Source: Eledone cirrhosa
Taxonomy: Eukaryota
Direction: 5' to 3'
Length of the DNA stretch: 64,000 bases
NCBI GenBank assembly: GCA_964016885.1
Contig: OZ024741.1
Coordinates: 353,586,001 to 353,650,000 of the forward strand
Position 1 is the stretch's first letter. Each line of letters opens with the position of its first letter. Under the pieces are notes generated by a model, which made no database searches, had not been told where the DNA came from, and saw nothing but the letters and a program-made list of their open reading frames with translations. Made by a program: the position numbers and the translations under genes. Below, piece after piece: positions 13,652 to 58,090 of this stretch.

Positions 13652-13653
13652 CA

Positions 13654-22512: not shown

Positions 22513-22518
<6 letters not shown>

Positions 22519-25499
22519 CTAAACATTACTGATTTAAATCATCTCTATTATGCATCGGCTAAAGTCACCACTCACTTATGTGGAGTGAAGATGAAAAAAC
22601 AAAGGAATTCCCACAAGAAATCTACTTGGCAAGAGAACATCAATCGCCAAATAAACCTTCTCCGATCTGACATAGAAATTTTAACAAACTATAAAGTAGG
22701 TGAACATGTTAAACAAACTAAACTTAGAAAATTGAAAAGAAAGTACAGTATAAAATCAACAAGTGACATAGACATGCTGATAGAAATAATCAAGCAAAAA
22801 GTGTCGGCCAAAGCTGCTCGTATAAGGCGCTTTGAAAAACGATTAGGATTCTATAAGGACAATAATATGTTCAAAAACAACCAAAGAAACTTCTACAGAA
22901 AAATTGGTAAATCAACAATAACTGCTAAATCAATACCACCCAAGGAGGAAGTGCAAGAATTCTGGGAAAAGATCTGGCCGAAGAAAAAGTTCATAACATA
23001 CATGCCCCATGGATAGACAGCCAAATGAAAGATACAGTTCACCTTGAGGAACAAACATGGGAAAATATAACAGTTGAACAGTTGCGCTTGGCTCTAAGAA
23101 AAACCAGCAAATGGAAATCCCCAGGAAAAGACAAAATACAAAATTTTTGGATAAATGCCTTCACAGAGTCTCATGAGCTGTTAGCCCAACTTTACAATGA
23201 AATAGTTAAGGAGCCAGAAAAGATACCTTCATGGCTAGTTAACGGCATTACATTCCTGCTTCCGAAGAATGATGAGACAAACAATCCCCAAAATTACAGA
23301 CCGATAACTTGCTTGACCACAATGTATAACATTTTAACATCAGTCCTAACTGAATACACATATGACCACCTGATAACAAATGACCCATTTCCCATTGAGC
23401 AGAAAGGGTGTAAACGAGGCTCATATGGCTGTAAGGATCAGCTTCTGGTTAACAAAATGATACTGGAAGATTGTCATAATAGACACAAAAATCTATCGAT
23501 TGCTTGGATAGATTATAAAAAAGCATTCGATACTTTGCCACACAGTTGGATTGAAAAATGTTTAGAGATTTTCAAAATATCCCCCGTTGTCAGGAGGTTT
23601 TTGTCATTCAGTATGAAGACATGGAAAACGACACTCCTTTTGAATAGTGAAACAAAATCACTGGAAGCTGGAGAAGTTAATATTAATTGTGGAATTTTTC
23701 AGGGTGACTCTTTATCACCGCTTTTATTCTGCATCGCACTTATACCATTAAGTAAAATGCTCAATAAAACAAAACATGGATATAAAGTCTATGACAAAAC
23801 CATTAATCACCTGTTCTACATGGATGACCTGAAACTATTTGCAAAAAAATGATGAACAATTGCAAGGGCTATTATCCACTGTGAAGCAGTTCAGTGATGA
23901 CATTAAAATGGTGTTTGGACTAGATAAATGCGCCAAAGCAACGTTCACCAGAGGAAAGCTGCTGAAGCGTTCAGACATTAATCTTGATCGGGGGAACGTG
24001 ATAAGAGAACTTGATCAAGAAAAAACTTACAAATATCTAGGTGTTTGTGAAGGAGACGGAATCAAGCACTCTACAATGAGGGAAAGGATAAGGAAGGAAT
24101 GTTACCGCAGAGTAAGAGCAATCTTAAGAACGGAATTGAATGCAAGGAATAGGATCGATGCCATAAACACGCTTGCCATACCAGTAGTAACCTACAGTTA
24201 CAATGTCATCAACTGGTCAAGCACAGAGATCCGTAGGCTCGATACAAAAATTCGAAAATTCTTAACCATGCACAGAATGTATCACCCTAAGGCAGATATA
24301 GATAGAATATATCTCCCTAGGAAAGAAGGAGGACGTGGGTTAATCCAGTTAGACATTGCGTTGAAAACTGCAACAATTGGATTATCTACATATCTAAGGG
24401 AATCACATGATTGGATGATCAAACTCGTTTTGAAACACGAAAGCATCAAAAGATCATATTCCATTACAAAAGATGCACAAAGATACAGTAATGGACTACA
24501 AATTTCAGAAGTCCCATTTACTGCTGAAATGGAAAACACAGAAAAAGCAAAGCAGGTAAAAGTAACTGCAAAGAAAGAACTGCTACAGAAAATGGCTAAG
24601 AAATGGCAAGAAAAGCCTCTGTATGGAAAATACCAAGAGCGATCTAACAATCCTGATGTTGACAAAACTTTAACCCATCAGTGGTTGGCATCCTCTGGAC
24701 TGAAATCAGAGACTGAAGGACTGATTATACCGGCACAAGATCAGTGTCTGCCAACAAAAAATTACCAAGCCAACATAATAAAAAATGGGTGCAGCCCATT
24801 ATGCCGTGTATGCAAAAAACAACCAGAGACCATTGACCATATAATTTCAATGTGCAGTCCTATAGCTCCAACCGAATACCTAAACAGGCATGACAGAGCT
24901 GCACAATACATACATTGGATAATGTGTAAGCATTTTGACCTGCCCCATCAAAAGAATTGGTGGGAGCATCAACCACCTCCCATACTTGAAAAAGATCACA
25001 TCTCAATCTTGTGGAACTTTAGCATCCAAACAGACCGAAAAATAGATGCAAACAGACCTGATATAATATTGAAAGACTTTCAAAAGAGGGTATGCCTGCT
25101 AATTGATATGTCTGTTCCAATAGACAAGAATGTATCTATAAAAACATTTGAAAAATTGAGCTGGAGATAGAAATTGGAAAAATATGGAAATTGAGAACTA
25201 AAACAATACCAGTGGTTGTAGGCGCTCTGGGAATGATACCTAAGGGGTCTAATGATTACTTATCGCAAATCCCAGGAAACCCGCGTATAGGAGAAATACA
25301 AAAGATAGTACTAATGGGAACTGCCCATATACTAAGGAAGATTCTGTCAATATAAGTACATCACAAGTCTAAACACTAAAGATGCATGTGTGAATATGTA
25401 TGTTCTTTCTTGAACATGGCGGACCTTGGTGTCTCTTGAGGTCACTGGTTGTGACTTGGTGATAACTCGTATGAACATAAAGCAAGATAAATGTAACTG
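22513..25499 (+). mobile_element. Dong-like B1, 5'-truncated, frameshifted
   Basis: ORF pieces 22585-23016, 23025-23852 (YMDD) and 23839-25170 (CRVC, RHD, RPD); ancestral stop at 25353-25355. Confidence 0.93.
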
Positions 25500-26503
25500 T
25501 AATAATAATAATAATAATAATAAGGGAAGAAGACGCACGTGGTGGATAGAAGGTCATGAAATCGCTCCCGTAAGTTTTTGATTTTTAACATATCTAAATC
25601 AATTGTGAAATAACAATTCTTAGTACAAATGATACATAAAGCACCAGACTCAAGTCTCAGAAAATTCGGATCCATAATATCCTGTTATATCGCTCAAATA
25701 TTTAATTTTGTATTATACATTTTATAGTCAAAAAAGAAAATGGTTATAAATGGAAGAAAACCCCCTCTGTCTACACTATATAGAACAGCCAATAACAGCA
25801 ATTTCACCAACACCACAAACTAGATATACCACCTATCCCATCACCCCTCTGTGTACACTAAATACAACAGCCAGATAACGGCAATTTCACCACCACCACC
25901 AATCCCAGCATAATAATAATAATTACTATTATTATTGTCTCAAGTTTTCACAAAATGTTTAATTCCAATATTAAGTGAATATGTCAACACATATATTAAA
26001 CATACGCGACAAACGCATAGATACACAGATCAAACAAAACTACAGTCTATTCAACAAAACTCAGTAACGACAACGCCATCACTATAGTCACCGACGCCAC
26101 CACTCCATACATCATTGCTACCACTATCCCATCACCGCCGCCACCACTCCTTCATTGCTACCACCACTATTCCCCCATTACCTTCTGTTAACTTAAGAAA
26201 GGGGAAGGTGGCGGTATCACTAGACAAGGGAGAGGCTAGCAAAAGATATAAATAGATTGACTTAGTGACCCGGCCACCGGCCAAACGTCAACGAAAATGG
26301 CACTGCTGGCTCCCCCCTTCCCCACCAACAATAGGAAAAGCCCCAGCACCACCACCGACATAGCCAACAACAATAACAGGCAACTTCAGCAAAAAGTATA
26401 TTATATTATTAATAATTTCATTCTTAAGCCACGCAATGCTCACATTAAGGAACCACTCATGATAATAACAATTTAAAAAAAACAACAAAAAAGAAAACCC
26501 CGT

Positions 26504-26700
26504 GACCAAGAAATACCGGGATGGCGGCCTACGGGGAATAGCCGTGTCTCTAGGGGAGGACGACCCCTCTAGTCTTGGTTGACACTCGTCCTAGAAGTGG
26601 TAACACGAAATGATTACCCCTTGGCGGATAAGGATAAAACGCGACAAAATAAAGTAAATGTCTAATGATAAAATCTCATACCGGATCGGCCGTCACCCGG
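26504..26700 (+). ncRNA. Structured 5' leader, candidate HDV-like ribozyme fold (repeated in every unit)
   Basis: Pairings GACCAA/TTGGTT, AGGAC/GTCCT and GAC/GTC in nested-pseudoknot order; catalytic strand non-canonical. Confidence 0.35.
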
Positions 26701-29700
26701 GTAAAAAAGGGCCGCGTCCCTCAGAGAGGAACCAGACTGGGGTCGAAAAATCAGCTAATGGTTCAAACCTTCCCATCACTTCGGAGCTGGAGACCTCCCA
26801 TAACCGGAATACTCCTACTGTTGGCCCTCCATGCTCACCACCAAGAAATCAAAAGAAAAAGAGAGAAAAATGGTCAAGGGAAGATAATAAAGAAGTCCTT
26901 GAGGCTTTCTACACTGCCATGTACTACCCATCAAATACATCGAATACAGAACAGACATATATCAACTGGAAAAAGAAACATCCCGAAAACAGAGGCTATA
27001 TTGACAGTAACAAACTAGCCAATATACGAAGAAATATTGTAACTGATATAGACATTGATCAGATCAAGCTATTAGCACAAAGTCAGCGAAGGGAAAATGA
27101 AACATGTGTCAGTGGAAATGAGGTAAATTGTAACACTTCGAATCCCAGGGTTGGGGCGGAATCACTGACAACAGAATAAATTAAAGAAAGGATCGAAAAA
27201 GTGGAGGGAGTGCATGCTCAAGATGAAACTCAAAATGGAAACAATGAGATCGTAAATGATAAAGAAATGAATGAGAATGAACTTGCCAACTTGAAGGATG
27301 AAATTATGATCGAATGGATGAAAATGAAAGAATCTGACATGGGGGAACGAGACACCCTCCCTAAGATCCAGAACTCCAAACAGAACCACAAGACTAACAT
27401 AATTCTCAAAAACATTATCATCACAAACAAACTAAACATTACTGATTTAAATCATCTCTATTATGCATCAGCTAAAGTCACCACTCACTTATGTGGAGTG
27501 AAGATGAAAAAACAAAGGAATTCCCACAAGAAATCTACTTGGCAAGAGAACATCAATCGCCAAATAAACCTTCTCCGATCTGACATAGAAATTTTAACAA
27601 ACTATAAAGTAGGTGAACATGTTAAACAAACTAAACTTAGAAAATTGAAAAGAAAGTACAGTATAAAATCAACAAGTGACATAGACATGCTGATAGAAAT
27701 AATCAAGCAAAAAGTGTCGGCCAAAGCTGCTCGGATAAGGCGCTTTGAAAAACGATTAGGATTCTATAAGGACAATAATATGTTCAAAAACAACCAAAGA
27801 AACTTCTACAGAAAAATTGGTAAATCAACAAACTGCTAAATCAATACCACCCAAGGAGGAAGTGCAAGAATTCTGGGAAAAGATCTGGGCCGAAGAAAAA
27901 GTTCATAATATACATGCCCCATGGATAGACAGACAAATGAAAGATACAGCTCACCTTGAGGAACAAATATGGGAAAGTATAACAGTTGAACAGTTGCGTT
28001 TGGCTCTAAGAAAAACCAGCAAATGGAAATCCCCAGGAAAAGACAAAATACAAAATTTTTGGATAAATGCCTTTACAGAGTCTCATGAGCTGTTAGCCCA
28101 ACTTTACAATGAAATAGTTAAGGAGCCAGAAAAGATACCTTCATGGCTAGTTAACGGCATTACATTCCTGCTTCCGAAGAATGATGAGACAAACAATCCC
28201 CAAAATTACAGACCGATAACTTGCTTGACCACAATGTATAACATTTTAACATCAGTCCTAACTGAATACACATATGACCACCTGATAACAAATGATCCAT
28301 TTCCCATTGAGCAGAAAGGGTGTAAACGAGGCTCATATGGCTGTAAGGATCAGCTTCTGGTTAACAAAATGATACTGGAAGATTGTCATAATAGACACAA
28401 AAATCTATCGATTGCTTGGATAGATTATAAAAAAGCATTCGATACTTTGCCACACAGTTGGATTGAAAAATGTTTAGAGATTTTCAAAATATCCCCCGTT
28501 GTCAGGAGGTTTTTGTCATTCAGTATGAAGACATGGAAAACGACACTCCTTTTGAATAGTGAAACAAAATCACTGGAAGCTGGAGAAGTTAATATTAATT
28601 GTGGAATTTTTCAGGGTGACTCTTTATCACCGCTTTTATTCTGCATCGCACTTATACCATTAAGTAAAATGCTCAATAAAACAAAACATGGATATAAAGT
28701 CTATGACAAAACCATTAATCACCTGTTCTACATGGATGACCTGAAACTATTTGCAAAAAAATGATGAACAATTGCAAGGGCTATTATCCACTGTGAAGCA
28801 GTTCAGTGATGACATTAAAATGGAGTTTGGACTAGATAAATGCGCCAAAGCAACGTTCACCAGAGGAAAGCTGCTGAAGAGTTCAGACATTAATCTTGAT
28901 CGGGGGAACGTGATAAGAGAACTTGATCAAGAAAAAACTTACAAATATCTAGGTGTTTGTGAAGGAGACGGAATCAAGCACTCTACAATGAGGGAAAGGA
29001 TAAGGAAGGAATGTTACCGCAGAGTAAGAGCAATCTTAAGAACGGAATTGAATGCAAGGAATAGGATCGATGCCATAAACACGCTTGCCATACCAGTAGT
29101 AACCTACAGTTACAATGTCATCAACTGGTCAAGCACAGAGATCCGTAGGCTCGATACAAAAATTCGAAAATTCTTAACCATGCACAGAATGCATCACCCT
29201 AAGGCAGATATAGATAGAATATATCTCCCTAGGAAAGAAGGAGGACGTGGGTTAATCCAGTTAGACATTGCGTTGAAAACTGCAACAATTGGATTATCTA
29301 CATATCTAAGGGAATCACATGATTGGATGATCAAACTCGTTTTGAAACACGAAAGCATCAAAAGATCATATTCCATTACAAAAGATGCACAAAGATACAG
29401 TAATGGACTACAAATTTCAGAAGTCCCATTTACTGCTGAAATGGAAAACACAGAAAAAGCAAAGCAGGTAAAAGTAACTGCAAAGAAAGAACTGCTACAG
29501 AAAATGGCTAAGAAATGGCAAGAAAAGCCTCTGTATGGAAAATACCAAGAGCGATCTAACAATCCTGATGTTGACAAAACTTTAACCCATCAGTGGTTGG
29601 CATCCTCTGGACTGAAATTAGAGACTGAAGGACTGATTATACCGGCACAAGATCAGTGTCTGCCAACAAAAAATTACCAAGCCAACATAATAAAAAATGG

Positions 29701-30267
29701 GTGCAGCCCATTATGCCGTGTATGCAAAAAACAACCAGAGACCATTGACCATATAATTTCAATGTGCAGTCCTATAGCTCCAACCGAATACCTAAACAGG
29801 CATGACAGAGCTGCACAATACATACATTGGATAATGTGTAAGCATTTTGACCTGCCCCATCAAAAGAATTGGTGGGAGCATCAACCACCTCCCATACTTG
29901 AAAAAGATCACATCTCAATCTTGTGGAACTTTAGCATCCAAACAGACCGAAAAATAGATGCAAACAGACCTGATATAATATTGAAAGACTTTCAAAAGAG
30001 GGTATGCCTGCTAATTGATATGTCTGTTCCAATAGACAAGAATGTATCTATAAAAACATTTGAAAAATTGAGCTGGAGATAGAAATTGGAAAAATATGGA
30101 AATTGAGAACTAAAACAATACCAGTGGTTGTAGGCGCTCTGGGAATGATACCTAAGGGGTCTAATGATTACTTATCGCAAATCCCAGGAAACCCGCGTAT
30201 AGGAGAAATACAAAAGATAGTACTAATGGGAACTGCCCATATACTAAGGAAGATTCTGTCAATATAA
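26658..30267 (+). pseudogene. Dong-like B2 ORF (unit 25524-30411): RT-CCHC-RLE with one stop and three frameshifts
   Basis: ORFs 26658-27179, 27201-27839, 27817-28764, 28751-30082. Confidence 0.93.
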
Positions 30268-31568
30268 GTACATCACAAGTCTAAACACTAAAGATGCATG
30301 TGTGAATATGTATGTTCTTTCTTGAACATGGCGGACCTTGGTGTCTCTTGAGGTCACTGGTTGTGACTTGGTGATAACTCGTATGAACATAAAGCAAGAT
30401 AAATGTAACTGTAATAATAATAATAATAATAATAAGGGAAGAAGACGCACGTGGTGGATAGAAGGTCATGAAATCGCTCCCGTAAGTTTTTGATTTTTAA
30501 CATATTTAAATCAATTGTGAAATAACAATTCTTAGTACAAATGATACATAAAGCACCAGACTCAAGTCTCAGAAAATTCGGATCCATAATATCCTGTTAT
30601 ATCGCTCAAATATTTAATTTTGTATTATACATTTTATAGTCAAAAAAGAAAATGGTTATAAATGGAAGAAAACCCCCTCTGTCTACACTATATAGAACAG
30701 CCAATAACAGCAATTTCACCAACACCACAAACTAGATATACCACCTATCCCATCACCCCTCTGTGTACACTAAATACAACAGCCAGATAACGGCAATTTC
30801 ACCACCACCACCAATCCCAGCATAATAATAATAATTACTATTATTATTGTCTCAAGTTTTCACAAAATGTTTAATTCCAATATTAAGTGAATATGTCAAC
30901 ACATATATTAAACATACGCGACAAACGCATAGATACACAGATCAAACAAAACTACAGTCTATTCAACAAAACTCAGTAACGACAACGCCATCACTATAGT
31001 CACCGACGCCACCACTCCATACATCATTGCTACCACTATCCCATCACCGCCGCCACCACTCCTTCATTGCTACCACCACTATTCCCCATTACCTTCTGTT
31101 AACTTAAGAAAGGGGAAGGTGGCGGTATCACTAGACAAGGGAGAGGCTAGCAAAAGATATAAATAGATTGACTTAGTGACCCGGCCACCGGCCAAACGTC
31201 AACGAAAATGGCACTGCTGGCTCCCCCCTTCCCCACCAACAATAGGAAAAGCCCCAGCACCACCACCGACATAGCCAACAACAATAACAGGCAACTTCAG
31301 CAAAAAGTATATTATATTATTAATAATTTCATTCTTAAGCCACGCAATGCTCACATTAAGGAACCACTCATGATAATAACAATTTAAAAAAAACAACAAA
31401 AAAGAAAACCCCGTGACCAAGAAATACCGGGATGGCGGCCTACGGGGAATAGCCGTGTCTCTAGGGGAGGACGACCCCTCTAGTCTTGGTTGACACTCGT
31501 CCTAGAAGTGGTAACACGAAATGATTACCCCTTGGCGGATAAGGATAAAACGCGACAAAATAAAGTAA

Positions 31569-34500
31569 ATGTCTAATGATAAAATCTCATACCGGATCGG
31601 CCGTCACCCGGGTAAAAAAGGGCCGCGTCCCTCAGAGAGGAACCAGACTGGGGTCGAAAAATCAGCTAATGGTTCAAACCTTCCCATCACTTCGGAGCTG
31701 GAGACCTCCCATAACCGGAATACTCCTACTGTTGGCCCTCCATGCTCACCACCAAGAAATCAAAAGAAAAAGAGAGAAAAATGGTCAAGGGAAGATAATA
31801 AAGAAGTCCTTGAGGCTTTCTACACTGCCATGTACTACCCATCAAATACATCGAATACAGAACAGACATATATCAACTGGAAAAAGAAACATCCCGAAAA
31901 CAGAGGCTATATTGACAGTAACAAACTAGCCAATATACGAAGAAATATTGTAACTGATATAGACATTGATCAGATCAAGCTATTAGCACAAAGTCAGCGA
32001 AGGGAAAATGAAACATGTGTCAGTGGAAATGAGGTAAATTGTAACACTTCGAATCCCAGGGTTGGGGCGGAATCACTGACAACAGAATAAATTAAAGAAA
32101 GGATCGAAAAAGTGGAGGGAGTGCATGCTCAAGATGAAACTCAAAATGGAAACAATGAGATCGTAAATGATAAAGAAATGAATGAGAATGAACTTGCCAA
32201 CTTGAAGGATGAAATTATGATCGAATGGATGAAAATGAAAGAATCTGACATGGGGGAACGAGACACCCTCCCTAAGATCCAGAACTCCAAACAGAACCAC
32301 AAGACTAACATAATTCTCAAAAACATTATCATCACAAACAAACTAAACATTACTGATTTAAATCATCTCTATTATGCATCAGCTAAAGTCACCACTCACT
32401 TATGTGGAGTGAAGATGAAAAAACAAAGGAATTCCCACAAGAAATCTACTTGGCAAGAGAACATCAATCGCCAAATAAACCTTCTCCGATCTGACATAGA
32501 AATTTTAACAAACTATAAAGTAGGTGAACATGTTAAACAAACTAAACTTAGAAAATTGAAAAGAAAGTACAGTATAAAATCAACAAGTGACATAGACATG
32601 CTGATAGAAATAATCAAGCAAAAAGTGTCGGCCAAAGCTGCTCGGATAAGGCGCTTTGAAAAACGATCTAGATTCTATAAGGACAATAATATGTTCAAAA
32701 ACAACCAAAGAAACTTCTACAGAAAAATTGGTAAATCAACAAACTGCTAAATCAATACCACCCAAGGAGGAAGTGCAAGAATTCTGGGAAAAGATCTGGG
32801 CCGAAGAAAAAGTTCATAATATACATGCCCCATGGATAGACAGACAAATGAAAGATACAGCTCACCTTGAGGAACAAATATGGGAAAGTATAACAGTTGA
32901 ACAGTTGCGTTTGGCTCTAAGAAAAACCAGCAAATGGAAATCCCCAGGAAAAGACAAAATACAAAATTTTTGGATAAATGCCTTTACAGAGTCTCATGAG
33001 CTGTTAGCCCAACTTTACAATGAAATAGTTAAGGAGCCAGAAAAGATACCTTCATGGCTAGTTAACGGCATTACATTCCTGCTTCCGAAGAATGATGAGA
33101 CAAACAATCCCCAAAATTACAGACCGATAACTTGCTTGACCACAATGTATAACATTTTAACATCAGTCCTAACTGAATACACATATGACCACCTGATAAC
33201 AAATGACCCATTTCCCATTGAGCAGAAAGGGTGTAAACGAGGCTCATATGGCTGTAAGGATCAGCTTCTGGTTAACAAAATGATACTGGAAGATTGTCAT
33301 AATAGACACAAAAATCTATCGATTGCTTGGATAGATTATAAAAAAGCATTCGATACTTTGCCACACAGTTGGATTGAAAAATGTTTAGAGATTTTCAAAA
33401 TATCCCCCGTTGTCAGGAGGTTTTTGTCATTCAGTATGAAGACATGGAAAACGACACTCCTTTTGAATAGTGAAACAAAATCACTGGAAGCTGGAGAAGT
33501 TAATATTAATTGTGGAATTTTTCAGGGTGACTCTTTATCACCGCTTTTATTCTGCATCGCACTTATACCATTAAGTAAAATGCTCAATAAAACAAAACAT
33601 GGATATAAAGTCTATGACAAAACCATTAATCACCTGTTCTACATGGATGACCTGAAACTATTTGCAAAAAAATGATGAACAATTGCAAGGGCTATTATCC
33701 ACTGTGAAGCAGTTCAGTGATGACATTAAAATGGAGTTTGGACTAGATAAATGCGCCAAAGCAACGTTCACCAGAGGAAAGCTGCTGAAGAGTTCAGACA
33801 TTAATCTTGATCGGGGGAACGTGATAAGAGAACTTGATCAAGAAAAAACTTACAAATATCTAGGTGTTTGTGAAGGAGACGGAATCAAGCACTCTACAAT
33901 GAGGGAAAGGATAAGGAAGGAATGTTACCGCAGAGTAAGAGCAATCTTAAGAACGGAATTGAATGCAAGGAATAGGATCGATGCCATAAACACGCTTGCC
34001 ATACCAGTAGTAACCTACAGTTACAATGTCATCAACTGGTCAAGCACAGAGATCCGTAGGCTCGATACAAAAATTCGAAAATTCTTAACCATGCACAGAA
34101 TGCATCACCCTAAGGCAGATATAGATAGAATATATCTCCCTAGGAAAGAAGGAGGACGTGGGTTAATCCAGTTAGACATTGCGTTGAAAACTGCAACAAT
34201 TGGATTATCTACATATCTAAGGGAATCACATGATTGGATGATCAAACTCGTTTTGAAACACGAAAGCATCAAAAGATCATATTCCATTACAAAAGATGCA
34301 CAAAGATACAGTAATGGACTACAAATTTCAGAAGTCCCATTTACTGCTGAAATGGAAAACACAGAAAAAGCAAAGCAGGTAAAAGTAACTGCAAAGAAAG
34401 AACTGCTACAGAAAATGGCTAAGAAATGGCAAGAAAAGCCTCTGTATGGAAAATACCAAGAGCGATCTAACAATCCTGATGTTGACAAAACTTTAACCCA

Positions 34501-35178
34501 TCAGTGGTTGGCATCCTCTGGACTGAAATTAGAGACTGAAGGACTGATTATACCGGCACAAGATCAGTGTCTGCCAACAAAAAATTACCAAGCCAACATA
34601 ATAAAAAATGGGTGCAGCCCATTATGCCGTGTATGCAAAAAACAACCAGAGACCATTGACCATATAATTTCAATGTGCAGTCCTATAGCTCCAACCGAAT
34701 ACCTAAACAGGCATGACAGAGCTGCACAATACATACATTGGATAATGTGTAAGCATTTTGACCTGCCCCATCAAAAGAATTGGTGGGAGCATCAACCACC
34801 TCCCATACTTGAAAAAGATCACATCTCAATCTTGTGGAACTTTAGCATCCAAACAGACCGAAAAATAGATGCAAACAGACCTGATATAATATTGAAAGAC
34901 TTTCAAAAGAGGGTATGCCTGCTAATTGATATGTCTGTTCCAATAGACAAGAATGTATCTATAAAAACATTTGAAAAATTGAGCTGGAGATAGAAATTGG
35001 AAAAATATGGAAATTGAGAACTAAAACAATACCAGTGGTTGTAGGCGCTCTGGGAATGATACCTAAGGGGTCTAATGATTACTTATCGCAAATCCCAGGA
35101 AACCCGCGTATAGGAGAAATACAAAAGATAGTACTAATGGGAACTGCCCATATACTAAGGAAGATTCTGTCAATATAA
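31569..35178 (+). pseudogene. Dong-like B3 ORF, same lesions
   Basis: ORFs starting 31569, 32112, 32656, 33662. Confidence 0.93.
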
Positions 35179-36479
35179 GTACATCACAAGTCTAAACACT
35201 AAAGATGCATGTGTGAATATGTATGTTCTTTCTTGAACATGGCGGACCTTGGTGTCTCTTGAGGTCACTGGTTGTGACTTGGTGATAACTCGTATGAACA
35301 TAAAGCAAGATAAATGTAACTGTAATAATAATAATAATAATAATAAGGGAAGAAGACGCACGTGGTGGATAGAAGGTCATGAAATCGCTCCCGTAAGTTT
35401 TTGATTTTTAACATATTTAAATCAATTGTGAAATAACAATTCTTAGTACAAATGATACATAAAGCACCAGACTCAAGTCTCAGAAAATTCGGATCCATAA
35501 TATCCTGTTATATCGCTCAAATATTTAATTTTGTATTATACATTTTATAGTCAAAAAAGAAAATGGTTATAAATGGAAGAAAACCCCCTCTGTCTACACT
35601 ATATAGAACAGCCAATAACAGCAATTTCACCAACACCACAAACTAGATATACCACCTATCCCATCACCCCTCTGTGTACACTAAATACAACAGCCAGATA
35701 ACGGCAATTTCACCACCACCACCAATCCCAGCATAATAATAATAATTACTATTATTATTGTCTCAAGTTTTCACAAAATGTTTAATTCCAATATTAAGTG
35801 AATATGTCAACACATATATTAAACATACGCGACAAACGCATAGATACACAGATCAAACAAAACTACAGTCTATTCAACAAAACTCAGTAACGACAACGCC
35901 ATCACTATAGTCACCGACGCCACCACTCCATACATCATTGCTACCACTATCCCATCACCGCCGCCACCACTCCTTCATTGCTACCACCACTATTCCCCAT
36001 TACCTTCTGTTAACTTAAGAAAGGGGAAGGTGGCGGTATCACTAGACAAGGGAGAGGCTAGCAAAAGATATAAATAGATTGACTTAGTGACCCGGCCACC
36101 GGCCAAACGTCAACGAAAATGGCACTGCTGGCTCCCCCCTTCCCCACCAACAATAGGAAAAGCCCCAGCACCACCACCGACATAGCCAACAACAATAACA
36201 GGCAACTTCAGCAAAAAGTATATTATATTATTAATAATTTCATTCTTAAGCCACGCAATGCTCACATTAAGGAACCACTCATGATAATAACAATTTAAAA
36301 AAAACAACAAAAAAGAAAACCCCGTGACCAAGAAATACCGGGATGGCGGCCTACGGGGAATAGCCGTGTCTCTAGGGGAGGACGACCCCTCTAGTCTTGG
36401 TTGACACTCGTCCTAGAAGTGGTAACACGAAATGATTACCCCTTGGCGGATAAGGATAAAACGCGACAAAATAAAGTAA

Positions 36480-45000: not shown

Positions 45001-46301
45001 GTACATCACAAGTCTAAACACTAAAGATGCATGTGTGAATATGTATGTTCTTTCTTGAACATGGCGGACCTTGGTGTCTCTTGAGGTCACTGGTTGTGAC
45101 TTGGTGATAACTCGTATGAACATAAAGCAAGATAAATGTAACTGTAATAATAATAATAATAATAATAAGGGAAGAAGACGCACGTGGTGGATAGAAGGTC
45201 ATGAAATCGCTCCCGTAAGTTTTTGATTTTTAACATATTTAAATCAATTGTGAAATAACAATTCTTAGTACAAATGATACATAAAGCACCAGACTCAAGT
45301 CTCAGAAAATTCGGATCCATAATATCCTGTTATATCGCTCAAATATTTAATTTTGTATTATACATTTTATAGTCAAAAAAGAAAATGGTTATAAATGGAA
45401 GAAAACCCCCTCTGTCTACACTATATAGAACAGCCAATAACAGCAATTTCACCAACACCACAAACTAGATATACCACCTATCCCATCACCCCTCTGTGTA
45501 CACTAAATACAACAGCCAGATAACGGCAATTTCACCACCACCACCAATCCCAGCATAATAATAATAATTACTATTATTATTGTCTCAAGTTTTCACAAAA
45601 TGTTTAATTCCAATATTAAGTGAATATGTCAACACATATATTAAACATACGCGACAAACGCATAGATACACAGATCAAACAAAACTACAGTCTATTCAAC
45701 AAAACTCAGTAACGACAACGCCATCACTATAGTCACCGACGCCACCACTCCATACATCATTGCTACCACTATCCCATCACCGCCGCCACCACTCCTTCAT
45801 TGCTACCACCACTATTCCCCATTACCTTCTGTTAACTTAAGAAAGGGGAAGGTGGCGGTATCACTAGACAAGGGAGAGGCTAGCAAAAGATATAAATAGA
45901 TTGACTTAGTGACCCGGCCACCGGCCAAACGTCAACGAAAATGGCACTGCTGGCTCCCCCCTTCCCCACCAACAATAGGAAAAGCCCCAGCACCACCACC
46001 GACATAGCCAACAACAATAACAGGCAACTTCAGCAAAAAGTATATTATATTATTAATAATTTCATTCTTAAGCCACGCAATGCTCACATTAAGGAACCAC
46101 TCATGATAATAACAATTTAAAAAAAACAACAAAAAAGAAAACCCCGTGACCAAGAAATACCGGGATGGCGGCCTACGGGGAATAGCCGTGTCTCTAGGGG
46201 AGGACGACCCCTCTAGTCTTGGTTGACACTCGTCCTAGAAGTGGTAACACGAAATGATTACCCCTTGGCGGATAAGGATAAAACGCGACAAAATAAAGTA
46301 A

Positions 46302-49300
46302 ATGTCTAATGATAAAATCTCATACCGGATCGGCCGTCACCCGGGTAAAAAAGGGCCGCGTCCCTCAGAGAGGAACCAGACTGGGGTCGAAAAATCAGCT
46401 AATGGTTCAAACCTTCCCATCACTTCGGAGCTGGAGACCTCCCATAACCGGAATACTCCTACTGTTGGCCCTCCATGCTCACCACCAAGAAATCAAAAGA
46501 AAAAGAGAGAAAAATGGTCAAGGGAAGATAATAAAGAAGTCCTTGAGGCTTTCTACACTGCCATGTACTACCCATCAAATACATCGAATACAGAACAGAC
46601 ATATATCAACTGGAAAAAGAAACATCCCGAAAACAGAGGCTATATTGACAGTAACAAACTAGCCAATATACGAAGAAATATTGTAACTGATATAGACATT
46701 GATCAGATCAAGCTATTAGCACAAAGTCAGCGAAGGGAAAATGAAACATGTGTCAGTGGAAATGAGGTAAATTGTAACACTTCGAATCCCAGGGTTGGGG
46801 CGGAATCACTGACAACAGAATAAATTAAAGAAAGGATCGAAAAAGTGGAGGGAGTGCATGCTCAAGATGAAACTCAAAATGGAAACAATGAGATCGTAAA
46901 TGATAAAGAAATGAATGAGAATGAACTTGCCAACTTGAAGGATGAAATTATGATCGAATGGATGAAAATGAAAGAATCTGACATGGGGGAACGAGACACC
47001 CTCCCTAAGATCCAGAACTCCAAACAGAACCACAAGACTAACATAATTCTCAAAAACATTATCATCACAAACAAACTAAACATTACTGATTTAAATCATC
47101 TCTATTATGCATCAGCTAAAGTCACCACTCACTTATGTGGAGTGAAGATGAAAAAACAAAGGAATTCCCACAAGAAATCTACTTGGCAAGAGAACATCAA
47201 TCGCCAAATAAACCTTCTCCGATCTGACATAGAAATTTTAACAAACTATAAAGTAGGTGAACATGTTAAACAAACTAAACTTAGAAAATTGAAAAGAAAG
47301 TACAGTATAAAATCAACAAGTGACATAGACATGCTGATAGAAATAATCAAGCAAAAAGTGTCGGCCAAAGCTGCTCGGATAAGGCGCTTTGAAAAACGAT
47401 CTAGATTCTATAAGGACAATAATATGTTCAAAAACAACCAAAGAAACTTCTACAGAAAAATTGGTAAATCAACAAACTGCTAAATCAATACCACCCAAGG
47501 AGGAAGTGCAAGAATTCTGGGAAAAGATCTGGGCCGAAGAAAAAGTTCATAATATACATGCCCCATGGATAGACAGACAAATGAAAGATACAGCTCACCT
47601 TGAGGAACAAATATGGGAAAGTATAACAGTTGAACAGTTGCGTTTGGCTCTAAGAAAAACCAGCAAATGGAAATCCCCAGGAAAAGACAAAATACAAAAT
47701 TTTTGGATAAATGCCTTTACAGAGTCTCATGAGCTGTTAGCCCAACTTTACAATGAAATAGTTAAGGAGCCAGAAAAGATACCTTCATGGCCAGTTAACG
47801 GCATTACATTCCTGCTTCCGAAGAATGATGAGACAAACAATCCCCAAAATTACAGACCGATAACTTGCTTGACCACAATGTATAACATTTTAACATCAGT
47901 CCTAACTGAATACACATATGACCACCTGATAACAAATGACCCATTTCCCATTGAGCAGAAAGGGTGTAAACGAGGCTCATATGGCTGTAAGGATCAGCTT
48001 CTGGTTAACAAAATGATACTGGAAGATTGTCATAATAGACACAAAAATCTATCGATTGCTTGGATAGATTATAAAAAAGCATTCGATACTTTGCCACACA
48101 GTTGGATTGAAAAATGTTTAGAGATTTTCAAAATATCCCCCGTTGTCAGGAGGTTTTTGTCATTCAGTATGAAGACATGGAAAACGACACTCCTTTTGAA
48201 TAGTGAAACAAAATCACTGGAAGCTGGAGAAGTTAATATTAATTGTGGAATTTTTCAGGGTGACTCTTTATCACCGCTTTTATTCTGCATCGCACTTATA
48301 CCATTAAGTAAAATGCTCAATAAAACAAAACATGGATATAAAGTCTATGACAAAACCATTAATCACCTGTTCTACATGGATGACCTGAAACTATTTGCAA
48401 AAAAATGATGAACAATTGCAAGGGCTATTATCCACTGTGAAGCAGTTCAGTGATGACATTAAAATGGAGTTTGGACTAGATAAATGCGCCAAAGCAACGT
48501 TCACCAGAGGAAAGCTGCTGAAGAGTTCAGACATTAATCTTGATCGGGGGAACGTGATAAGAGAACTTGATCAAGAAAAAACTTACAAATATCTAGGTGT
48601 TTGTGAAGGAGACGGAATCAAGCACTCTACAATGAGGGAAAGGATAAGGAAGGAATGTTACCGCAGAGTAAGAGCAATCTTAAGAACGGAATTGAATGCA
48701 AGGAATAGGATCGATGCCATAAACACGCTTGCCATACCAGTAGTAACCTACAGTTACAATGTCATCAACTGGTCAAGCACAGAGATCCGTAGGCTCGATA
48801 CAAAAATTCGAAAATTCTTAACCATGCACAGAATGTATCACCCTAAGGCAGATATAGATAGAATATATCTCCCTAGGAAAGAAGGAGGACGTGGGTTAAT
48901 CCAGTTAGACATTGCGTTGAAAACTGCAACAATTGGATTATCTACATATCTAAGGGAATCACATGATTGGATGATCAAACTCGTTTTGAAACACGAAAGC
49001 ATCAAAAGATCATATTCCATTACAAAAGATGCACAAAGATACAGTAATGGACTACAAATTTCAGAAGTCCCATTTACTGCTGAAATGGAAAACACAGAAA
49101 AAGCAAAGCAGGTAAAAGTAACTGCAAAGAAAGAACTGCTACAGAAAATGGCTAAGAAATGGCAAGAAAAGCCTCTGTATGGAAAATACCAAGAGCGATC
49201 TAACAATCCTGACGTTGACAAAACTTTAACCCATCAGTGGTTGGCATCCTCTGGACTGAAATCAGAGACTGAAGGACTGATTATACCGGCACAAGATCAG

Positions 49301-49911
49301 TGTCTGCCAACAAAAAATTACCAAGCCAACATAATAAAAAATGGGTGCAGCCCATTATGCCGTGTATGCAAAAAACAACCAGAGACCATTGACCATATAA
49401 TTTCAATGTGCAGTCCTATAGCTCCAACCGAATACCTAAACAGGCATGACAGAGCTGCACAATACATACATTGGATAATGTGTAAGCATTTTGACCTGCC
49501 CCATCAAAAGAATTGGTGGGAGCATCAACCACCTCCCATACTTGAAAAAGATCACATCTCAATCTTGTGGAACTTTAGCATCCAAACAGACCGAAAAATA
49601 GATGCAAACAGACCTGATATAATATTGAAAGACTTTCAAAAGAGGGTATGCCTGCTAATTGATATGTCTGTTCCAATAGACAAGAATGTATCTATAAAAA
49701 CATTTGAAAAATTGAGCTGGAGATAGAAATTGGAAAAATATGGAAATTGAGAACTAAAACAATACCAGTGGTTGTAGGCGCTCTGGGAATGATACCTAAG
49801 GGGTCTAATGATTACTTATCGCAAATCCCAGGAAACCCGCGTATAGGAGAAATACAAAAGATAGTACTAATGGGAACTGCCCATATACTAAGGAAGATTC
49901 TGTCAATATAA
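46302..49911 (+). pseudogene. Dong-like B6 ORF, same lesions
   Basis: ORFs starting 46302, 46845, 47389, 48395. Confidence 0.93.
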
Positions 49912-51216
49912 GTACATCACAAGTCTAAACACTAAAGATGCATGTGTGAATATGTATGTTCTTTCTTGAACATGGCGGACCTTGGTGTCTCTTGAGGTCA
50001 CTGGTTGTGACTTGGTGATAACTCGTATGAACATAAAGCAAGATAAATGTAACTGTAATAATAATAATAATAATAATAATAAGGGAAGAAGACGCACGTG
50101 GTGGATAGAAGGTCATGAAATCGCTCCCGTAAGTTTTTGATTTTTAACATATTTAAATCAATTGTGAAATAACAATTCTTAGTACAAATGATACATAAAG
50201 CACCAGACTCAAGTCTCAGAAAATTCGGATCCATAATATCCTGTTATATCGCTCAAATATTTAATTTTGTATTATACATTTTATAGTCAAAAAAGAAAAT
50301 GGTTATAAATGGAAGAAAACCCCCTCTGTCTACACTATATAGAACAGCCAATAACAGCAATTTCACCAACACCACAAACTAGATATACCACCTATCCCAT
50401 CACCCCTCTGTGTACACTAAATACAACAGCCAGATAACGGCAATTTCACCACCACCACCAATCCCAGCATAATAATAATAATTACTATTATTATTGTCTC
50501 AAGTTTTCACAAAATGTTTAATTCCAATATTAAGTGAATATGTCAACACATATATTAAACATACGCGACAAACGCATAGATACACAGATCAAACAAAACT
50601 ACAGTCTATTCAACAAAACTCAGTAACGACAACGCCATCACTATAGTCACCGACGCCACCACTCCATACATCATTGCTACCACTATCCCATCACCGCCGC
50701 CACCACTCCTTCATTGCTACCACCACTATTCCCCCATTACCTTCTGTTAACTTAAGAAAGGGGAAGGTGGCGGTATCACTAGACAAGGGAGAGGCTAGCA
50801 AAAGATATAAATAGATTGACTTAGTGACCCGGCCACCGGCCAAACGTCAACGAAAATGGCACTGCTGGCTCCCCCCTTCCCCACCAACAATAGGAAAAGC
50901 CCCAGCACCACCACCGACATAGCCAACAACAATAACAGGCAACTTCAGCAAAAAGTATATTATATTATTAATAATTTCATTCTTAAGCCACGCAATGCTC
51001 ACATTAAGGAACCACTCATGATAATAACAATTTAAAAAAAACAACAAAAAAGAAAACCCCGTGACCAAGAAATACCGGGATGGCGGCCTACGGGGAATAG
51101 CCGTGTCTCTAGGGGAGGACGACCCCTCTAGTCTTGGTTGACACTCGTCCTAGAAGTGGTAACACGAAATGATTACCCCTTGGCGGATAAGGATAAAACG
51201 CGACAAAATAAAGTAA

Positions 51217-54200
51217 ATGTCTAATGATAAAATCTCATACCGGATCGGCCGTCACCCGGGTAAAAAAGGGCCGCGTCCCTCAGAGAGGAACCAGACTGGG
51301 GTCGAAAAATCAGCTAATGGTTCAAACCTTCCCATCACTTCGGAGCTGGAGACCTCCCATAACCGGAATACTCCTACTGTTGGCCCTCCATGCTCACCAC
51401 CAAGAAATCAAAAGAAAAAGAGAGAAAAATGGTCAAGGGAAGATAATAAAGAAGTCCTTGAGGCTTTCTACACTGCCATGTACTACCCATCAAATACATC
51501 GAATACAGAACAGACATATATCAACTGGAAAAAGAAACATCCCGAAAACAGAGGCTATATTGACAGTAACAAACTAGCCAATATACGAAGAAATATTGTA
51601 ACTGATATAGACATTGATCAGATCAAGCTATTAGCACAAAGTCAGCGAAGGGAAAATGAAACATGTGTCAGTGGAAATGAGGTAAATTGTAACACTTCGA
51701 ATCCCAGGGTTGGGGCGGAATCACTGACAACAGAATAAATTAAAGAAAGGATCGAAAAAGTGGAGGGAGTGCATGCTCAAGATGAAACTCAAAATGGAAA
51801 CAATGAGATCGTAAATGATAAAGAAATGAATGAGAATGAACTTGCCAACTTGAAGGATGAAATTATGATCGAATGGATGAAAATGAAAGAATCTGACATG
51901 GGGGAACGAGACACCCTCCCTAAGATCCAGAACTCCAAACAGAACCACAAGACTAACATAATTCTCAAAAACATTATCATCACAAACAAACTAAACATTA
52001 CTGATTTAAATCATCTCTATTATGCATCAGCTAAAGTCACCACTCACTTATGTGGAGTGAAGATGAAAAAACAAAGGAATTCCCACAAGAAATCTACTTG
52101 GCAAGAGAACATCAATCGCCAAATAAACCTTCTCCGATCTGACATAGAAATTTTAACAAACTATAAAGTAGGTGAACATGTTAAACAAACTAAACTTAGA
52201 AAATTGAAAAGAAAGTACAGTATAAAATCAACAAGTGACATAGACATGCTGATAGAAATAATCAAGCAAAAAGTGTCGGCCAAAGCTGCTCGGATAAGGC
52301 GCTTTGAAAAACGATCTAGATTCTATAAGGACAATAATATGTTCAAAAACAACCAAAGAAACTTCTACAGAAAAATTGGTAAATCAACAAACTGCTAAAT
52401 CAATACCACCCAAGGAGGAAGTGCAAGAATTCTGGGAAAAGATCTGGGCCGAAGAAAAAGTTCATAATATACATGCCCCATGGATAGACAGACAAATGAA
52501 AGATACAGCTCACCTTGAGGAACAAATATGGGAAAGTATAACAGTTGAACAGTTGCGTTTGGCTCTAAGAAAAACCAGCAAATGGAAATCCCCAGGAAAA
52601 GACAAAATACAAAATTTTTGGATAAATGCCTTTACAGAGTCTCATGAGCTGTTAGCCCAACTTTACAATGAAATAGTTAAGGAGCCAGAAAAGATACCTT
52701 CATGGCTAGTTAACGGCATTACATTCCTGCTTCCGAAGAATGATGAGACAAACAATCCCCAAAATTACAGACCGATAACTTGCTTGACCACAATGTATAA
52801 CATTTTAACATCAGTCCTAACTGAATACACATATGACCACCTGATAACAAATGACCCATTTCCCATTGAGCAGAAAGGGTGTAAACGAGGCTCATATGGC
52901 TGTAAGGATCAGCTTCTGGTTAACAAAATGATACTGGAAGATTGTCATAATAGACACAAAAATCTATCGATTGCTTGGATAGATTATAAAAAAGCATTCG
53001 ATACTTTGCCACACAGTTGGATTGAAAAATGTTTAGAGATTTTCAAAATATCCCCCGTTGTCAGGAGGTTTTTGTCATTCAGTATGAAGACATGGAAAAC
53101 GACACTCCTTTTGAATAGTGAAACAAAATCACTGGAAGCTGGAGAAGTTAATATTAATTGTGGAATTTTTCAGGGTGACTCTTTATCACCGCTTTTATTC
53201 TGCATCGCACTTATACCATTAAGTAAAATGCTCAATAAAACAAAACATGGATATAAAGTCTATGACAAAACCATTAATCACCTGTTCTACATGGATGACC
53301 TGAAACTATTTGCAAAAAAATGATGAACAATTGCAAGGGCTATTATCCACTGTGAAGCAGTTCAGTGATGACATTAAAATGGAGTTTGGACTAGATAAAT
53401 GCGCCAAAGCAACGTTCACCAGAGGAAAGCTGCTGAAGAGTTCAGACATTAATCTTGATCGGGGGAACGTGATAAGAGAACTTGATCAAGAAAAAACTTA
53501 CAAATATCTAGGTGTTTGTGAAGGAGACGGAATCAAGCACTCTACAATGAGGGAAAGGATAAGGAAGGAATGTTACCGCAGAGTAAGAGCAATCTTAAGA
53601 ACGGAATTGAATGCAAGGAATAGGATCGATGCCATAAACACGCTTGCCATACCAGTAGTAACCTACAGTTACAATGTCATCAACTGGTCAAGCACAGAGA
53701 TCCGTAGGCTCGATACAAAAATTCGAAAATTCTTAACCATGCACAGAATGTATCACCCTAAGGCAGATATAGATAGAATATATCTCCCTAGGAAAGAAGG
53801 AGGACGTGGGTTAATCCAGTTAGACATTGCGTTGAAAACTGCAACAATTGGATTATCTACATATCTAAGGGAATCACATGATTGGATGATCAAACTCGTT
53901 TTGAAACACGAAAGCATCAAAAGATCATATTCCATTACAAAAGATGCACAAAGATACAGTAATGGACTACAAATTTCAGAAGTCCCATTTACTGCTGAAA
54001 TGGAAAACACAGAAAAAGCAAAGCAGGTAAAAGTAACTGCAAAGAAAGAACTGCTACAGAAAATGGCTAAGAAATGGCAAGAAAAGCCTCTGTATGGAAA
54101 ATACCAAGAGCGATCTAACAATCCTGACGTTGACAAAACTTTAACCCATCAGTGGTTGGCATCCTCTGGACTGAAATCAGAGACTGAAGGACTGATTATA

Positions 54201-54826
54201 CCGGCACAAGATCAGTGTCTGCCAACAAAAAATTACCAAGCCAACATAATAAAAAATGGGTGCAGCCCATTATGCCGTGTATGCAAAAAACAACCAGAGA
54301 CCATTGACCATATAATTTCAATGTGCAGTCCTATAGCTCCAACCGAATACCTAAACAGGCATGACAGAGCTGCACAATACATACATTGGATAATGTGTAA
54401 GCATTTTGACCTGCCCCATCAAAAGAATTGGTGGGAGCATCAACCACCTCCCATACTTGAAAAAGATCACATCTCAATCTTGTGGAACTTTAGCATCCAA
54501 ACAGACCGAAAAATAGATGCAAACAGACCTGATATAATATTGAAAGACTTTCAAAAGAGGGTATGCCTGCTAATTGATATGTCTGTTCCAATAGACAAGA
54601 ATGTATCTATAAAAACATTTGAAAAATTGAGCTGGAGATAGAAATTGGAAAAATATGGAAATTGAGAACTAAAACAATACCAGTGGTTGTAGGCGCTCTG
54701 GGAATGATACCTAAGGGGTCTAATGATTACTTATCGCAAATCCCAGGAAACCCGCGTATAGGAGAAATACAAAAGATAGTACTAATGGGAACTGCCCATA
54801 TACTAAGGAAGATTCTGTCAATATAA
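51217..54826 (+). pseudogene. Dong-like B7 ORF, same lesions
   Basis: ORFs starting 51217, 51760, 52304, 53310. Confidence 0.93.
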
Positions 54827-54997
54827 GTACATCACAAGTCTAAACACTAAAGATGCATGTGTGAATATGTATGTTCTTTCTTGAACATGGCGGACCTTGG
54901 TGTCTCTTGAGGTCACTGGTTGTGACTTGGTGATAACTCGTATGAACATAAAGCAAGATAAATGTAACTGTAATAATAATAATAATAATAATAATAA

Positions 54998-57900
54998 GGG
55001 AAGAAGACGCACGTGGTGGATAGAAGGTCATGAAATCGCTCCCGTAAGTTTTTGATTTTTAACATATTTAAATCAATTGTGAAATAACAATTCTTAGTAC
55101 AAATGATACATAAAGCACCAGACTCAAGTCTCAGAAAATTCGGATCCATAATATCCTGTTATATCGCTCAAATATTTAATTTTGTATTATACATTTTATA
55201 GTCAAAAAAGAAAATGGTTATAAATGGAAGAAAACCCCCTCTGTCTACACTATATAGAACAGCCAATAACAGCAATTTCACCAACACCACAAACTAGATA
55301 TACCACCTATCCCATCACCCCTCTGTGTACACTAAATACAACAGCCAGATAACGGCAATTTCACCACCACCACCAATCCCAGCATAATAATAATAATTAC
55401 TATTATTATTGTCTCAAGTTTTCACAAAATGTTTAATTCCAATATTAAGTGAATATGTCAACACATATATTAAACATACGCGACAAACGCATAGATACAC
55501 AGATCAAACAAAACTACAGTCTATTCAACAAAACTCAGTAACGACAACGCCATCACTATAGTCACCGACGCCACCACTCCATACATCATTGCTACCACCA
55601 CTCCTTCATTGCTACCACCACTATTCCCCCATTACCTTCTGTTAACTTAAGAAAGGGGAAGGTGGCGGTATCACTAGACAAGGGAGAGGCTAGCAAAAGA
55701 TATAAATAGATTGACTTAGTGACCCGGCCACCGGCCAAACGTCAACGAAAATGGCACTGCTGGCTCCCCCCTTCCCCACCAACAATAGGAAAAGCCCCAG
55801 CACCACCACCGACATAGCCAACAACAATAACAGGCAACTTCAGCAAAAAGTATATTATATTATTAATAATTTCATTCTTAAGCCACGCAATGCTCACATT
55901 AAGGAACCACTCATGATAATAACAATTTAAAAAAAACAACAAAAAAGAAAACCCCGTGACCAAGAAATACCGGGATGGCGGCCTACGGGGAATAGCCGTG
56001 TCTCTAGGGGAGGACGACCCCTCTAGTCTTGGTTGACACTCGTCCTAGAAGTGGTAACACGAAATGATTACCCCTTGGCGGATAAGGATAAAACGCGACA
56101 AAATAAAGTAAATGTCTAATGATAAAATCTCATACCGGATCGGCCGTCACCCGGGTAAAAAAGGGCCGCGTCCCTCAGAGAGGAACCAGACTGGGGTCGA
56201 AAAATCAGCTAATGGTTCAAACCTTCCCATCACTTCGGAGCTGGAGACCTCCCATAACCGGAATACTCCTACTGTTGGCCCTCCATGCTCACCACCAAGA
56301 AATCAAAAGAAAAAGAGAGAAAAATGGTCAAGGGAAGATAATAAAGAAGTCCTTGAGGCTTTCTACACTGCCATGTACTACCCATCAAATACATCGAATA
56401 CAGAACAGACATATATCAACTGGAAAAAGAAACATCCCGAAAACAGAGGCTATATTGACAGTAACAAACTAGCCAATATACGAAGAAATATTGTAACTGA
56501 TATAGACATTGATCAGATCAAGCTATTAGCACAAAGTCAGCGAAGGGAAAATGAAACATGTGTCAGTGGAAATGAGGTAAATTGTAACACTTCGAATCCC
56601 AGGGTTGGGGCGGAATCACTGACAACAGAATAAATTAAAGAAAGGATCGAAAAAGTGGAGGGAGTGCATGCTCAAGATGAAACTCAAAATGGAAACAATG
56701 AGATCGTAAATGATAAAGAAATGAATGAGAATGAACTTGCCAACTTGAAGGATGAAATTATGATCGAATGGATGAAAATGAAAGAATCTGACATGGGGGA
56801 ACGAGACACCCTCCCTAAGATCCAGAACTCCAAACAGAACCACAAGACTAACATAATTCTCAAAAACATTATCATCACAAACAAACTAAACATTACTGAT
56901 TTAAATCATCTCTATTATGCATCAGCTAAAGTCACCACTCACTTATGTGGAGTGAAGATGAAAAAACAAAGGAATTCCCACAAGAAATCTACTTGGCAAG
57001 AGAACATCAATCGCCAAATAAACCTTCTCCGATCTGACATAGAAATTTTAACAAACTATAAAGTAGGTGAACATGTTAAACAAACTAAACTTAGAAAATT
57101 GAAAAGAAAGTACAGTATAAAATCAACAAGTGACATAGACATGCTGATAGAAATAATCAAGCAAAAAGTGTCGGCCAAAGCTGCTCGGATAAGGCGCTTT
57201 GAAAAACGATCTAGATTCTATAAGGACAATAATATGTTCAAAAACAACCAAAGAAACTTCTACAGAAAAATTGGTAAATCAACAAACTGCTAAATCAATA
57301 CCACCCAAGGAGGAAGTGCAAGAATTCTGGGAAAAGATCTGGGCCGAAGAAAAAGTTCATAATATACATGCCCTATGGATAGACAGACAAATGAAAGATA
57401 CAGCTCACCTTGAGGAACAAATATGGGAAAGTATAACAGTTGAACAGTTGCGTTTGGCTCTAAGAAAAACCAGCAAATGGAAATCCCCAGGAAAAGACAA
57501 AATACAAAATTTTTGGATAAATGCCTTCACAGAGTCTCATGAGCTGTTGGCCCAACTTTACAATGAAATAGTTAAGGAGCCAGAAAAGATACCATCATGG
57601 CTAGTTAACGGCATTACATTCCTGCTTCCGAAGAATGATGAGACAAACAATCGCCAAAATTACAGACCGATTTCTGTAATTGATATGTCCGTTCCAATAG
57701 ACAAGAATGTATCTATAAAAACATTTGAAAAATTGAGCAAGTATGAGGACCTGGAGATAGAAATTGGAAAAATGTGGAAATTGAGAACTAAAACAATACC
57801 AGTGGTTGTAGGCGCTCTAGGAATGATACCGAAGGGGTCTGATGATTACTTATCGCAAATCCCAGGAAACCCGCGTATAGGAGAAATACAAAAGATAGTA

Positions 57901-58089
57901 CTAATGGGAACTGCCCATATACTAAGGAAGATTATGTCAATATAAGTACATCACAAGTCTAAACACCTAAAGATGCATGTGTGAGTATGTATGTTCTTTC
58001 TTGAACATGGCGGACCTTGGTGTCTCTTGAGGTCACTGGTTGTGACTTGGTGATAACTCGTACGAACATAAAGCAAGATAAATGCAGCT

Positions 58090-58090
<1 letters not shown>
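54998..58090 (+). mobile_element. Dong-like B8: complete 5' part, ~1.8-kb internal deletion removing the RT core, intact C-terminus
   Basis: NYRPI is fused to SVIDMSVP at 57671-57677; KLSKYEDLEIE is retained; stop at 57945. Confidence 0.93.

Follow-up and report, generated by a model that had tools for sequence, protein, structure and literature searches.

Layout of the array and its surroundings

Within the window analysed here, a stretch of 64,000 nucleotides from Eledone cirrhosa, positions 22513-58090 hold eight head-to-tail copies (B1-B8) of one Dong/R4-like non-LTR retrotransposon, all on the plus strand and joined solely by (TAA)8-9. Self-comparison gives a period of 4.91 kb across 22513-57671, with long blocks that are 99.1-99.8% identical. 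The limits of the copies were set by anchors and a MAFFT alignment of B1-B8, in which the successive periods measure 4912, 4911, 4911, 4911, 4914, and 4915 bp; the numbers of inner copies (six) and of units (seven) are those of the assembly.

The array is preceded by an (AAT)14 tract (22471-22512), the target microsatellite, which forms the 5' junction of B1. B1 (22513-25499) is a 5'-truncated copy that starts at approximately codon 278 of its 1230-aa homologs and carries lesions of its own (-1 at 22975, +1 A after the YMDD motif, and a 13-nt deletion at 25160). It is followed by a (TAA)8 tract (25500-25523), which would be the junction of the founder dimer. B2 (25524-30411) is a full-length chimeric copy consisting of a leader of approximately 1.13 kb (25524-26657) and a single, broken ORF (26658-30267). 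The alignment places the further chimeric copies B3 at 30436-35322, B4 at 35347-40233, B5 at 40258-45144, B6 at 45169-50055, and B7 at 50083-54970. B8 (54998-58090) has an intact 5' end with a private 20-nt deletion in the leader and keeps 13 nt that are missing in B1-B7, but is internally deleted: 1794 bp have been exchanged for 5 nt at 57672-57676, so that the RT core and the zinc knuckle are gone. A (TAA)21 tract (58091-58153) closes the array. The initial annotation had described B1 as lacking the 5' end and B8 as lacking the RT core, and the alignment agrees. The deletion in B8 (57671-57677) joins the NYRPI motif to the endonuclease region and preserves the reading frame of the family ORF (net loss of 1788 nt, with the extra A of B7 discounted), which may be chance.

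All nine boundaries of B1-B8 are AAT/TAA tracts. The seven internal junctions hold 8, 8, 8, 8, 8, 9, and 9 TAA units, each followed by the same 5' start (7/7), whereas the other four junctions of the train hold 14, 21, 22, and 26 units.

Several other elements lie in the vicinity. Adjoining B1 upstream is a second Dong-like family (A, 20067-22113) with an open frame of 617 codons that is approximately 40% identical to the homologs of B, and a short copy of the 3' end of family A (22200-22470, six differences in 271 bp) is arranged head to tail with it in AAT tracts. On the minus strand, positions 304-8000 and 14079-19800 hold three LINE copies of the APE type or related to it, which are 72-80% alike, encode RT and zf-RVT domains (with APE in two and a zinc knuckle in one upstream ORF), and end at AGAT or AAT tracts. 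A (TA)n tract of 1.1 kb is located at 12753-13838.

Identity of the element and of its leader

The pieces of the B2 ORF match four tblastn segments that tile single-ORF homologs of 1229-1237 aa. The ORF contains an RT domain (Pfam RVT_1, E 3.9e-20), a CCHC motif (CRVC..H..C), and a C-terminal RPD..LID..P..K motif, which we take to be of the restriction-like endonuclease type. No Exo_endo_phos match, as expected of an APE domain, was obtained among the four B ORF pieces scanned with Pfam. A profile built from 50 sequences matches R2 structures best (9nl3, positions 438-1168, E 2e-51). Two Trp are invariant across the 50 aligned N-termini, and a Myb/SANT-like domain was found there neither by Pfam nor among the structure matches. 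At the 5' end, an Rfam scan for an HDV-like ribozyme returned four weak matches, none of them a ribozyme, and a descriptor of such ribozymes, run without a positive control, gave no hit in B2 or in the relatives L003 and L010. The protein homologs found are at most 67% identical to the B element, and none is labelled Dong or R4. A metagenome scan yielded 22 relatives, all of them distant (33-76% identity on the best segment) and none close enough to the family to polarise DNA sites; TAA tracts flank the relative L003 on both sides, and 8 of the 22 loci have a tract of at least four units.

Based on domain layout, motifs, and insertion into (TAA)n, the B element is best described as Dong/R4-like. 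Dong elements, which belong to the R4 clade, share the same layout and target (TAA)n (PMC7998251), and Dong-R4 elements have recently been active in Octopus vulgaris according to Table 1 of PMC13282606. Like members of that clade (PMC7998251, PMC3774820), the B element has one ORF of approximately 1200 aa with RT and a CCHC knuckle, a C-terminal restriction-like endonuclease motif, and no APE, and it resides in (TAA)n; the searches above did not find an HDV-like ribozyme at the 5' end of this dead copy. The published literature searched yielded no tandem array of near-identical Dong copies.

Four public contig sets of the family (X1, X4, X5, and X7) were aligned to one unit. In X1, X4, and X5, contigs cover the leader of B2 without an empty bin, and contigs of X5 (record 21, 1505 nt) and X7 (record 25, 3750 nt) run from 26230 and 26323, respectively, into the ORF. 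A loose end in X4 reads through AAT repeats into the same 5' start as the array copies. Among the contigs listed, none bridges 25524-26230 to the ORF. In L003, approximately 700 nt separate the upstream TAA tract from the first ATG. The idea that the 0.94 kb between copies (25524-26465) is unique host DNA was dropped after this comparison; the segment is likely the element's own 5' UTR rather than a host spacer, and the repeat unit thus likely corresponds to one full-length element.

Two further observations were made in these contigs. Approximately 45 nt present in family contigs are missing from B2 (26405-26410), and the letters of the X4 loose end at this site resemble, by eye, the reverse complement of a repeat starting just past the tail of B8 (58155-58200). 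The depth in X4 also exceeds that over the ORF several-fold at the ends of the element and near the start of the ORF (25355-25682, 26339-26666, and 30111-30265), and a short non-autonomous family derivative may be the reason.

The switch between parental alleles

The inner copies had been proposed to match B8 upstream and B1 downstream of a switch at 27999-28095, and this location was borne out, as were the positions of all diagnostic sites named with it. In the alignment, all six turn from B8-type to B1-type alleles inside one 95-bp interval (28000-28094 in B2, in the same register in B3-B7, and corresponding to 23088-23182 in B1 and 57454-57548 in B8). Twenty-seven markers separate B1 from B8, 12 upstream of the switch and 15 downstream, with three columns at the B8 deletion junction, the tail lengths, and site 28074 left out. 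Upstream, 10 of the 12 are B8-type in all six inner copies, and the diagnostic states include the 2-nt deletion (27830) as well as 27933, 27950, 27968, 27977, and 27999; the exceptions are TAG/CTA at 27757-27759, which is B1-type in B2 and B5, and 57374, which is private to B8. Downstream, all 15 are B1-type in every inner copy, with 28095, 28140, the 13-nt deletion (30072), and the 3' UTR alleles among the diagnostics. The A7 run after YMDD is present in B1-B7 as described, but it cannot discriminate between the parents because the region is missing in B8.

One breakpoint, shared by 6/6 inner copies, accounts for 26/27 markers in B3, B4, B6, and B7 and for 25/27 in B2 and B5. This fit was equalled in 0-10 of 200,000 permutations; the test loses strength when confined to the continuous 5' block with its 15 markers (p 0.011 for B3 and 0.035 for B2). 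Position 28074, not mentioned in the initial annotation, is T in all six inner copies and C in B1, B8, and the family (4/4 runs), which points to a single founder chimera. That T28074 might be a mutation induced by the crossover itself was set aside as a weak hint, the site being one of four that separate U1 from the other units; the chance that one of four sites falls into 95 of 4911 bp is approximately 7.5%.

The comparison with the family contigs, which drop rare variants, covers the 40 of 212 difference rows and the 15 of 65 joints that were listed. The family has C at 27177 (no stop), G at 27470, T at 27734, A at 27977, and A at 28140, as well as one A fewer at 28755, and it retains the 13 nt at 30072 (13-gap pieces in X4, X5, and X7). 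The inner copies therefore carry B8-derived states upstream (the stop at 27177, 27470, 27734, 27977, and the 2-nt deletion) and B1-derived states downstream (28140, the +1 at 28755, and the 13-nt deletion). As derived states come from both parents, the chimeric pattern consists of shared lesions and not of shared ancestral sequence. The 2 nt at 27830 that are missing in B2 are present in X4, X5, and X7, yet in X1 at just 2472 of 32253 depth, a shortfall that may be due to short contigs with their ends at this site.

Array alleles at 26335, 27470, 27734, 27977, 28074, 28984, and 29504 have zero depth in the X1 contigs, and array-private alleles were absent from the family contigs among the 40 of 212 rows listed. 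Dispersed copies with the chimeric haplotype were likewise not seen in these rows, in a test that is weak because contigs drop rare variants and the runs may come from other individuals, and the deletion junction of B8 does not recur among the 15 of 65 joints listed.

In B2, the ORF is broken by a stop at 27177-27179, by -2 at 27830, by +1 at 28755, and by -13 at 30072 in the endonuclease region. Judged by these four lesions, the 4.9-kb unit cannot encode the protein, in line with its earlier description as a coding-dead 4.91-kb unit. The suggestion that the locus reveals a route to reassembling full-length elements holds for length and structure and fails for function: the stop lies upstream of everything that B1 retains, and the lesions of B1 lie partly where B8 is deleted, so that the two parents can give length and not an open frame. 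The family contigs are free of these lesions (with X1 to be read cautiously at 27830), and intact family copies likely exist without this rebuilding route.

Three sites, which the initial annotation did not mention, do not follow the simple parental pattern. B1 and B8 share A at 27824, where the family has G (58275.9 of 58288.4 X1 depth, 99.98%, and single contigs in X4, X5, and X7), and they share C at 28201, where the family has A (92% in X1) and 124/136 homologs have Lys. Such sharing would be unexpected for two unrelated family members and would call for a common source element or for conversion. At 27757-27759, TAG is found in B1, B2, and B5 and CTA in B3, B4, B6, B7, B8, and the family. 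Given CTA in the family and Ser as the most frequent residue among homologs at this site (51/115), TAG is derived and has moved between B1 and the array, likely as a short gene-conversion patch. A single tract of conversion between 27734 and 27830, with a B2/B5-type unit as donor and B1 as recipient, would account for both TAG and 27824; descent from a common source element would account for 27824 and 28201. The ancestral CTA sits in an 8-bp palindrome (57209-57216), and reverse complementation of CTA gives the derived TAG, suggestive of a single template-switch mutation.

Origin of the array and its significance

The six inner copies probably stem from one unequal crossover between B1 and B8, followed by stepwise duplications at the DNA level within a TAA repeat. 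In a first step, B1 and B8 would have come to lie side by side: as the family inserts into (TAA)n and also ends in (TAA)n, it renews its own target, and dimers are to be expected. The pair could have arisen by two insertions or by a single round of reverse transcription in which the enzyme, on reaching the 5' end of one RNA, switched to the tail of another. R2 proteins are described to jump from full-length cDNA to further templates (PMC11371274), and a similar jump would give a complete right-hand and a truncated left-hand copy; the sequence does not choose between these routes. Both copies carry separate lesions and would then have decayed independently to approximately 1.3% from the family. 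In a third step, B8 would have paired out of register with B1, and an exchange inside the 95-bp interval would have yielded a unit with the 5' half of B8 and the 3' half of B1. Because such an exchange in the 790-bp shared 5' block duplicates the stretch between homologous points, the inner copy is necessarily chimeric. The new, near-perfect 4.9-kb repeat would have misaligned more readily, and further unequal exchange together with gene conversion would have led to the seven units with their six haplotypes. The single crossover put forward in the initial annotation thus draws support from the shared breakpoint and from the derived lesions of both parents. Against this reading stand TAG in B1, B2, and B5, which lies upstream of the switch and requires an extra conversion, A27824 and C28201 in both parents, T28074 in neither parent, and the low X1 depth at 27830.

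Between B1 and B8, 25 of 1190 aligned bases are mismatched (2.1%) and no frame-breaking lesion is shared in these bases, while B2 differs from family contigs at 47/3577, 49/3821, and 49/3588 positions (1.3-1.4%). As the distance between B1 and B8 is near twice that from copy to family and no disabling lesion is shared, their split would fall near the time of insertion. Two distinct founder insertions are thereby indicated, their full independence being weakened by the two shared rare alleles. The seven units (cut from switch to switch) differ by 0-9 events, with a mean of 5.6 (0.11%). The time before the expansion would be approximately 15-20 times that since then (1.3% versus 0.06-0.08% per lineage), so that the dimer would have formed near insertion time and expanded in roughly the last fifteenth to twentieth of its life, or later still if the unit differences are allelic variation from homologous chromosomes, which they may be. 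The description of a macrosatellite caught at birth is therefore relative.

The array could instead be an older, homogenised one of intact-length units whose edges escaped, with the truncation of B1 and the deletion in B8 acquired later, in which case nothing would have been rebuilt. The rare alleles shared by B1 and B8 at 27824 and 28201 would fit such a history, as would the position of the switch upstream of the B8 deletion, which precludes dating the deletion directly against the crossover. We nevertheless regard this history as unlikely: B1 begins directly on the (AAT)14 tract like a 5'-truncated insertion, the parents lack a shared disabling lesion and differ by approximately twice the copy-to-family distance, and the long interval before the expansion makes an earlier deletion more probable. 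The B8 deletion likely predates the crossover. As for the two complementary defective parents proposed at first, B1 is truncated and B8 deleted at present, and B8 would likely have been so at the moment of exchange.

The order of variants among the units bears on how the expansion proceeded. Six haplotypes are present among the seven units (U3 = U5), and variants are shared by U2-U5, by U6 and U7, by U2 and U4, and by U2, U3, and U5. Four of the 21 informative site pairs are incompatible (Rm = 2), which requires at least two later exchanges. A B1/B8 recombination on one chromatid could also have excised a 4.91-kb chimeric circle that was amplified by rolling-circle replication and reinserted as one concatemer, a mechanism depicted in Fig. 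1B of PMC5932611. It would yield the same single switch point and uniform junctions and could still have been the first step, but one burst predicts identical units or private changes, not the seven variable sites common to unit subsets with their alternating U2/U4 pattern. Stepwise exchange is favored by these subset-shared variants, and a burst as the whole explanation seems unlikely. The same haplotypes argue against an assembly artefact, in which mixed haplotypes or reads would have inflated the number of units or shuffled their variants. U3 does not differ from U5, two of the variable sites are changes in repeat length, and the count is that of the assembly; however, six haplotypes among seven units, substitutions common to subsets, and T28074 in all six inner copies and neither parent make this quite improbable, and a miscount would still require a chimeric unit to be present.

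That the expansion took place at the DNA level and not by retrotransposition, as first proposed, is supported by the 7/7 junctions with the same 5' start and by their (TAA)8-9 tails, against 14-26 units elsewhere in the train; such uniform junctions speak against repeated insertion. It is hardly credible that six retrotransposition events in trans placed copies of a chimeric non-coding RNA in one and the same TAA tail, even though the family forms trains within TAA tracts (A, A', and B here) and R2 proteins can copy templates in tandem (PMC11371274), given that both parents flank the array in the order predicted by a crossover, that the six copies agree in start and tail length and none of them is truncated, and that seven array alleles have zero depth in the X1 contigs, which drop rare variants.

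The route from dimer to satellite has been published, and the locus offers a new instance of it. McGurk and Barbash (2018, PMC5932611) describe transposable element dimers that arise by double insertion, propose expansion by unequal exchange, and cite the R1 array and a hobo array of approximately 16 copies in Drosophila melanogaster. Any dimer that grows by unequal exchange should end up with inner copies that are chimeric. The present array resembles these cases in the double insertion at a preferred site, the target kept at each junction, the head-to-tail order, and the unequal exchange, and differs in that both parents survive at its ends, 2% apart, with the founding crossover mapped to 95 bp. 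In the main text of PMC5932611, "chimer" occurs twice, neither time about array units. The macrosatellites DXZ4 and D4Z4 likewise have kilobase-size units in direct tandem order, but the array described here has just seven units and consists wholly of one LINE. A mapped founder crossover in an array of full-length LINEs was not found among the titles and starts of abstracts searched, in which subscription journals are sparsely represented. Further related literature includes PMC8967140 and bioRxiv 10.1101/782904.

TAA-targeting Dong elements might act more generally as seeds of macrosatellites: one template jump would make a dimer from one source (the first copy complete, the second truncated), and an error-prone crossover would rebuild a full-length unit and leave a mutation at the exchange site. 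Among thousands of dimers, some would then rebuild and amplify an element with an open frame, giving arrays of revived source copies. We offer this as a long shot; revival of a retrotransposon is not demonstrated here, as the unit carries disabling lesions from both parents.

The locus is a clean new example of the known dimer-to-satellite route, to which it adds resolution, as both founders are kept and the first crossover is mapped. How satellites arise from whole transposons that lack internal repeats has mostly been judged by the junctions alone, unequal exchange and rolling-circle replication being the competing models. At this locus, surviving, diverged founders map the first crossover to 95 bp and the unit haplotypes record later exchanges, so that the two models could be compared directly at one site.
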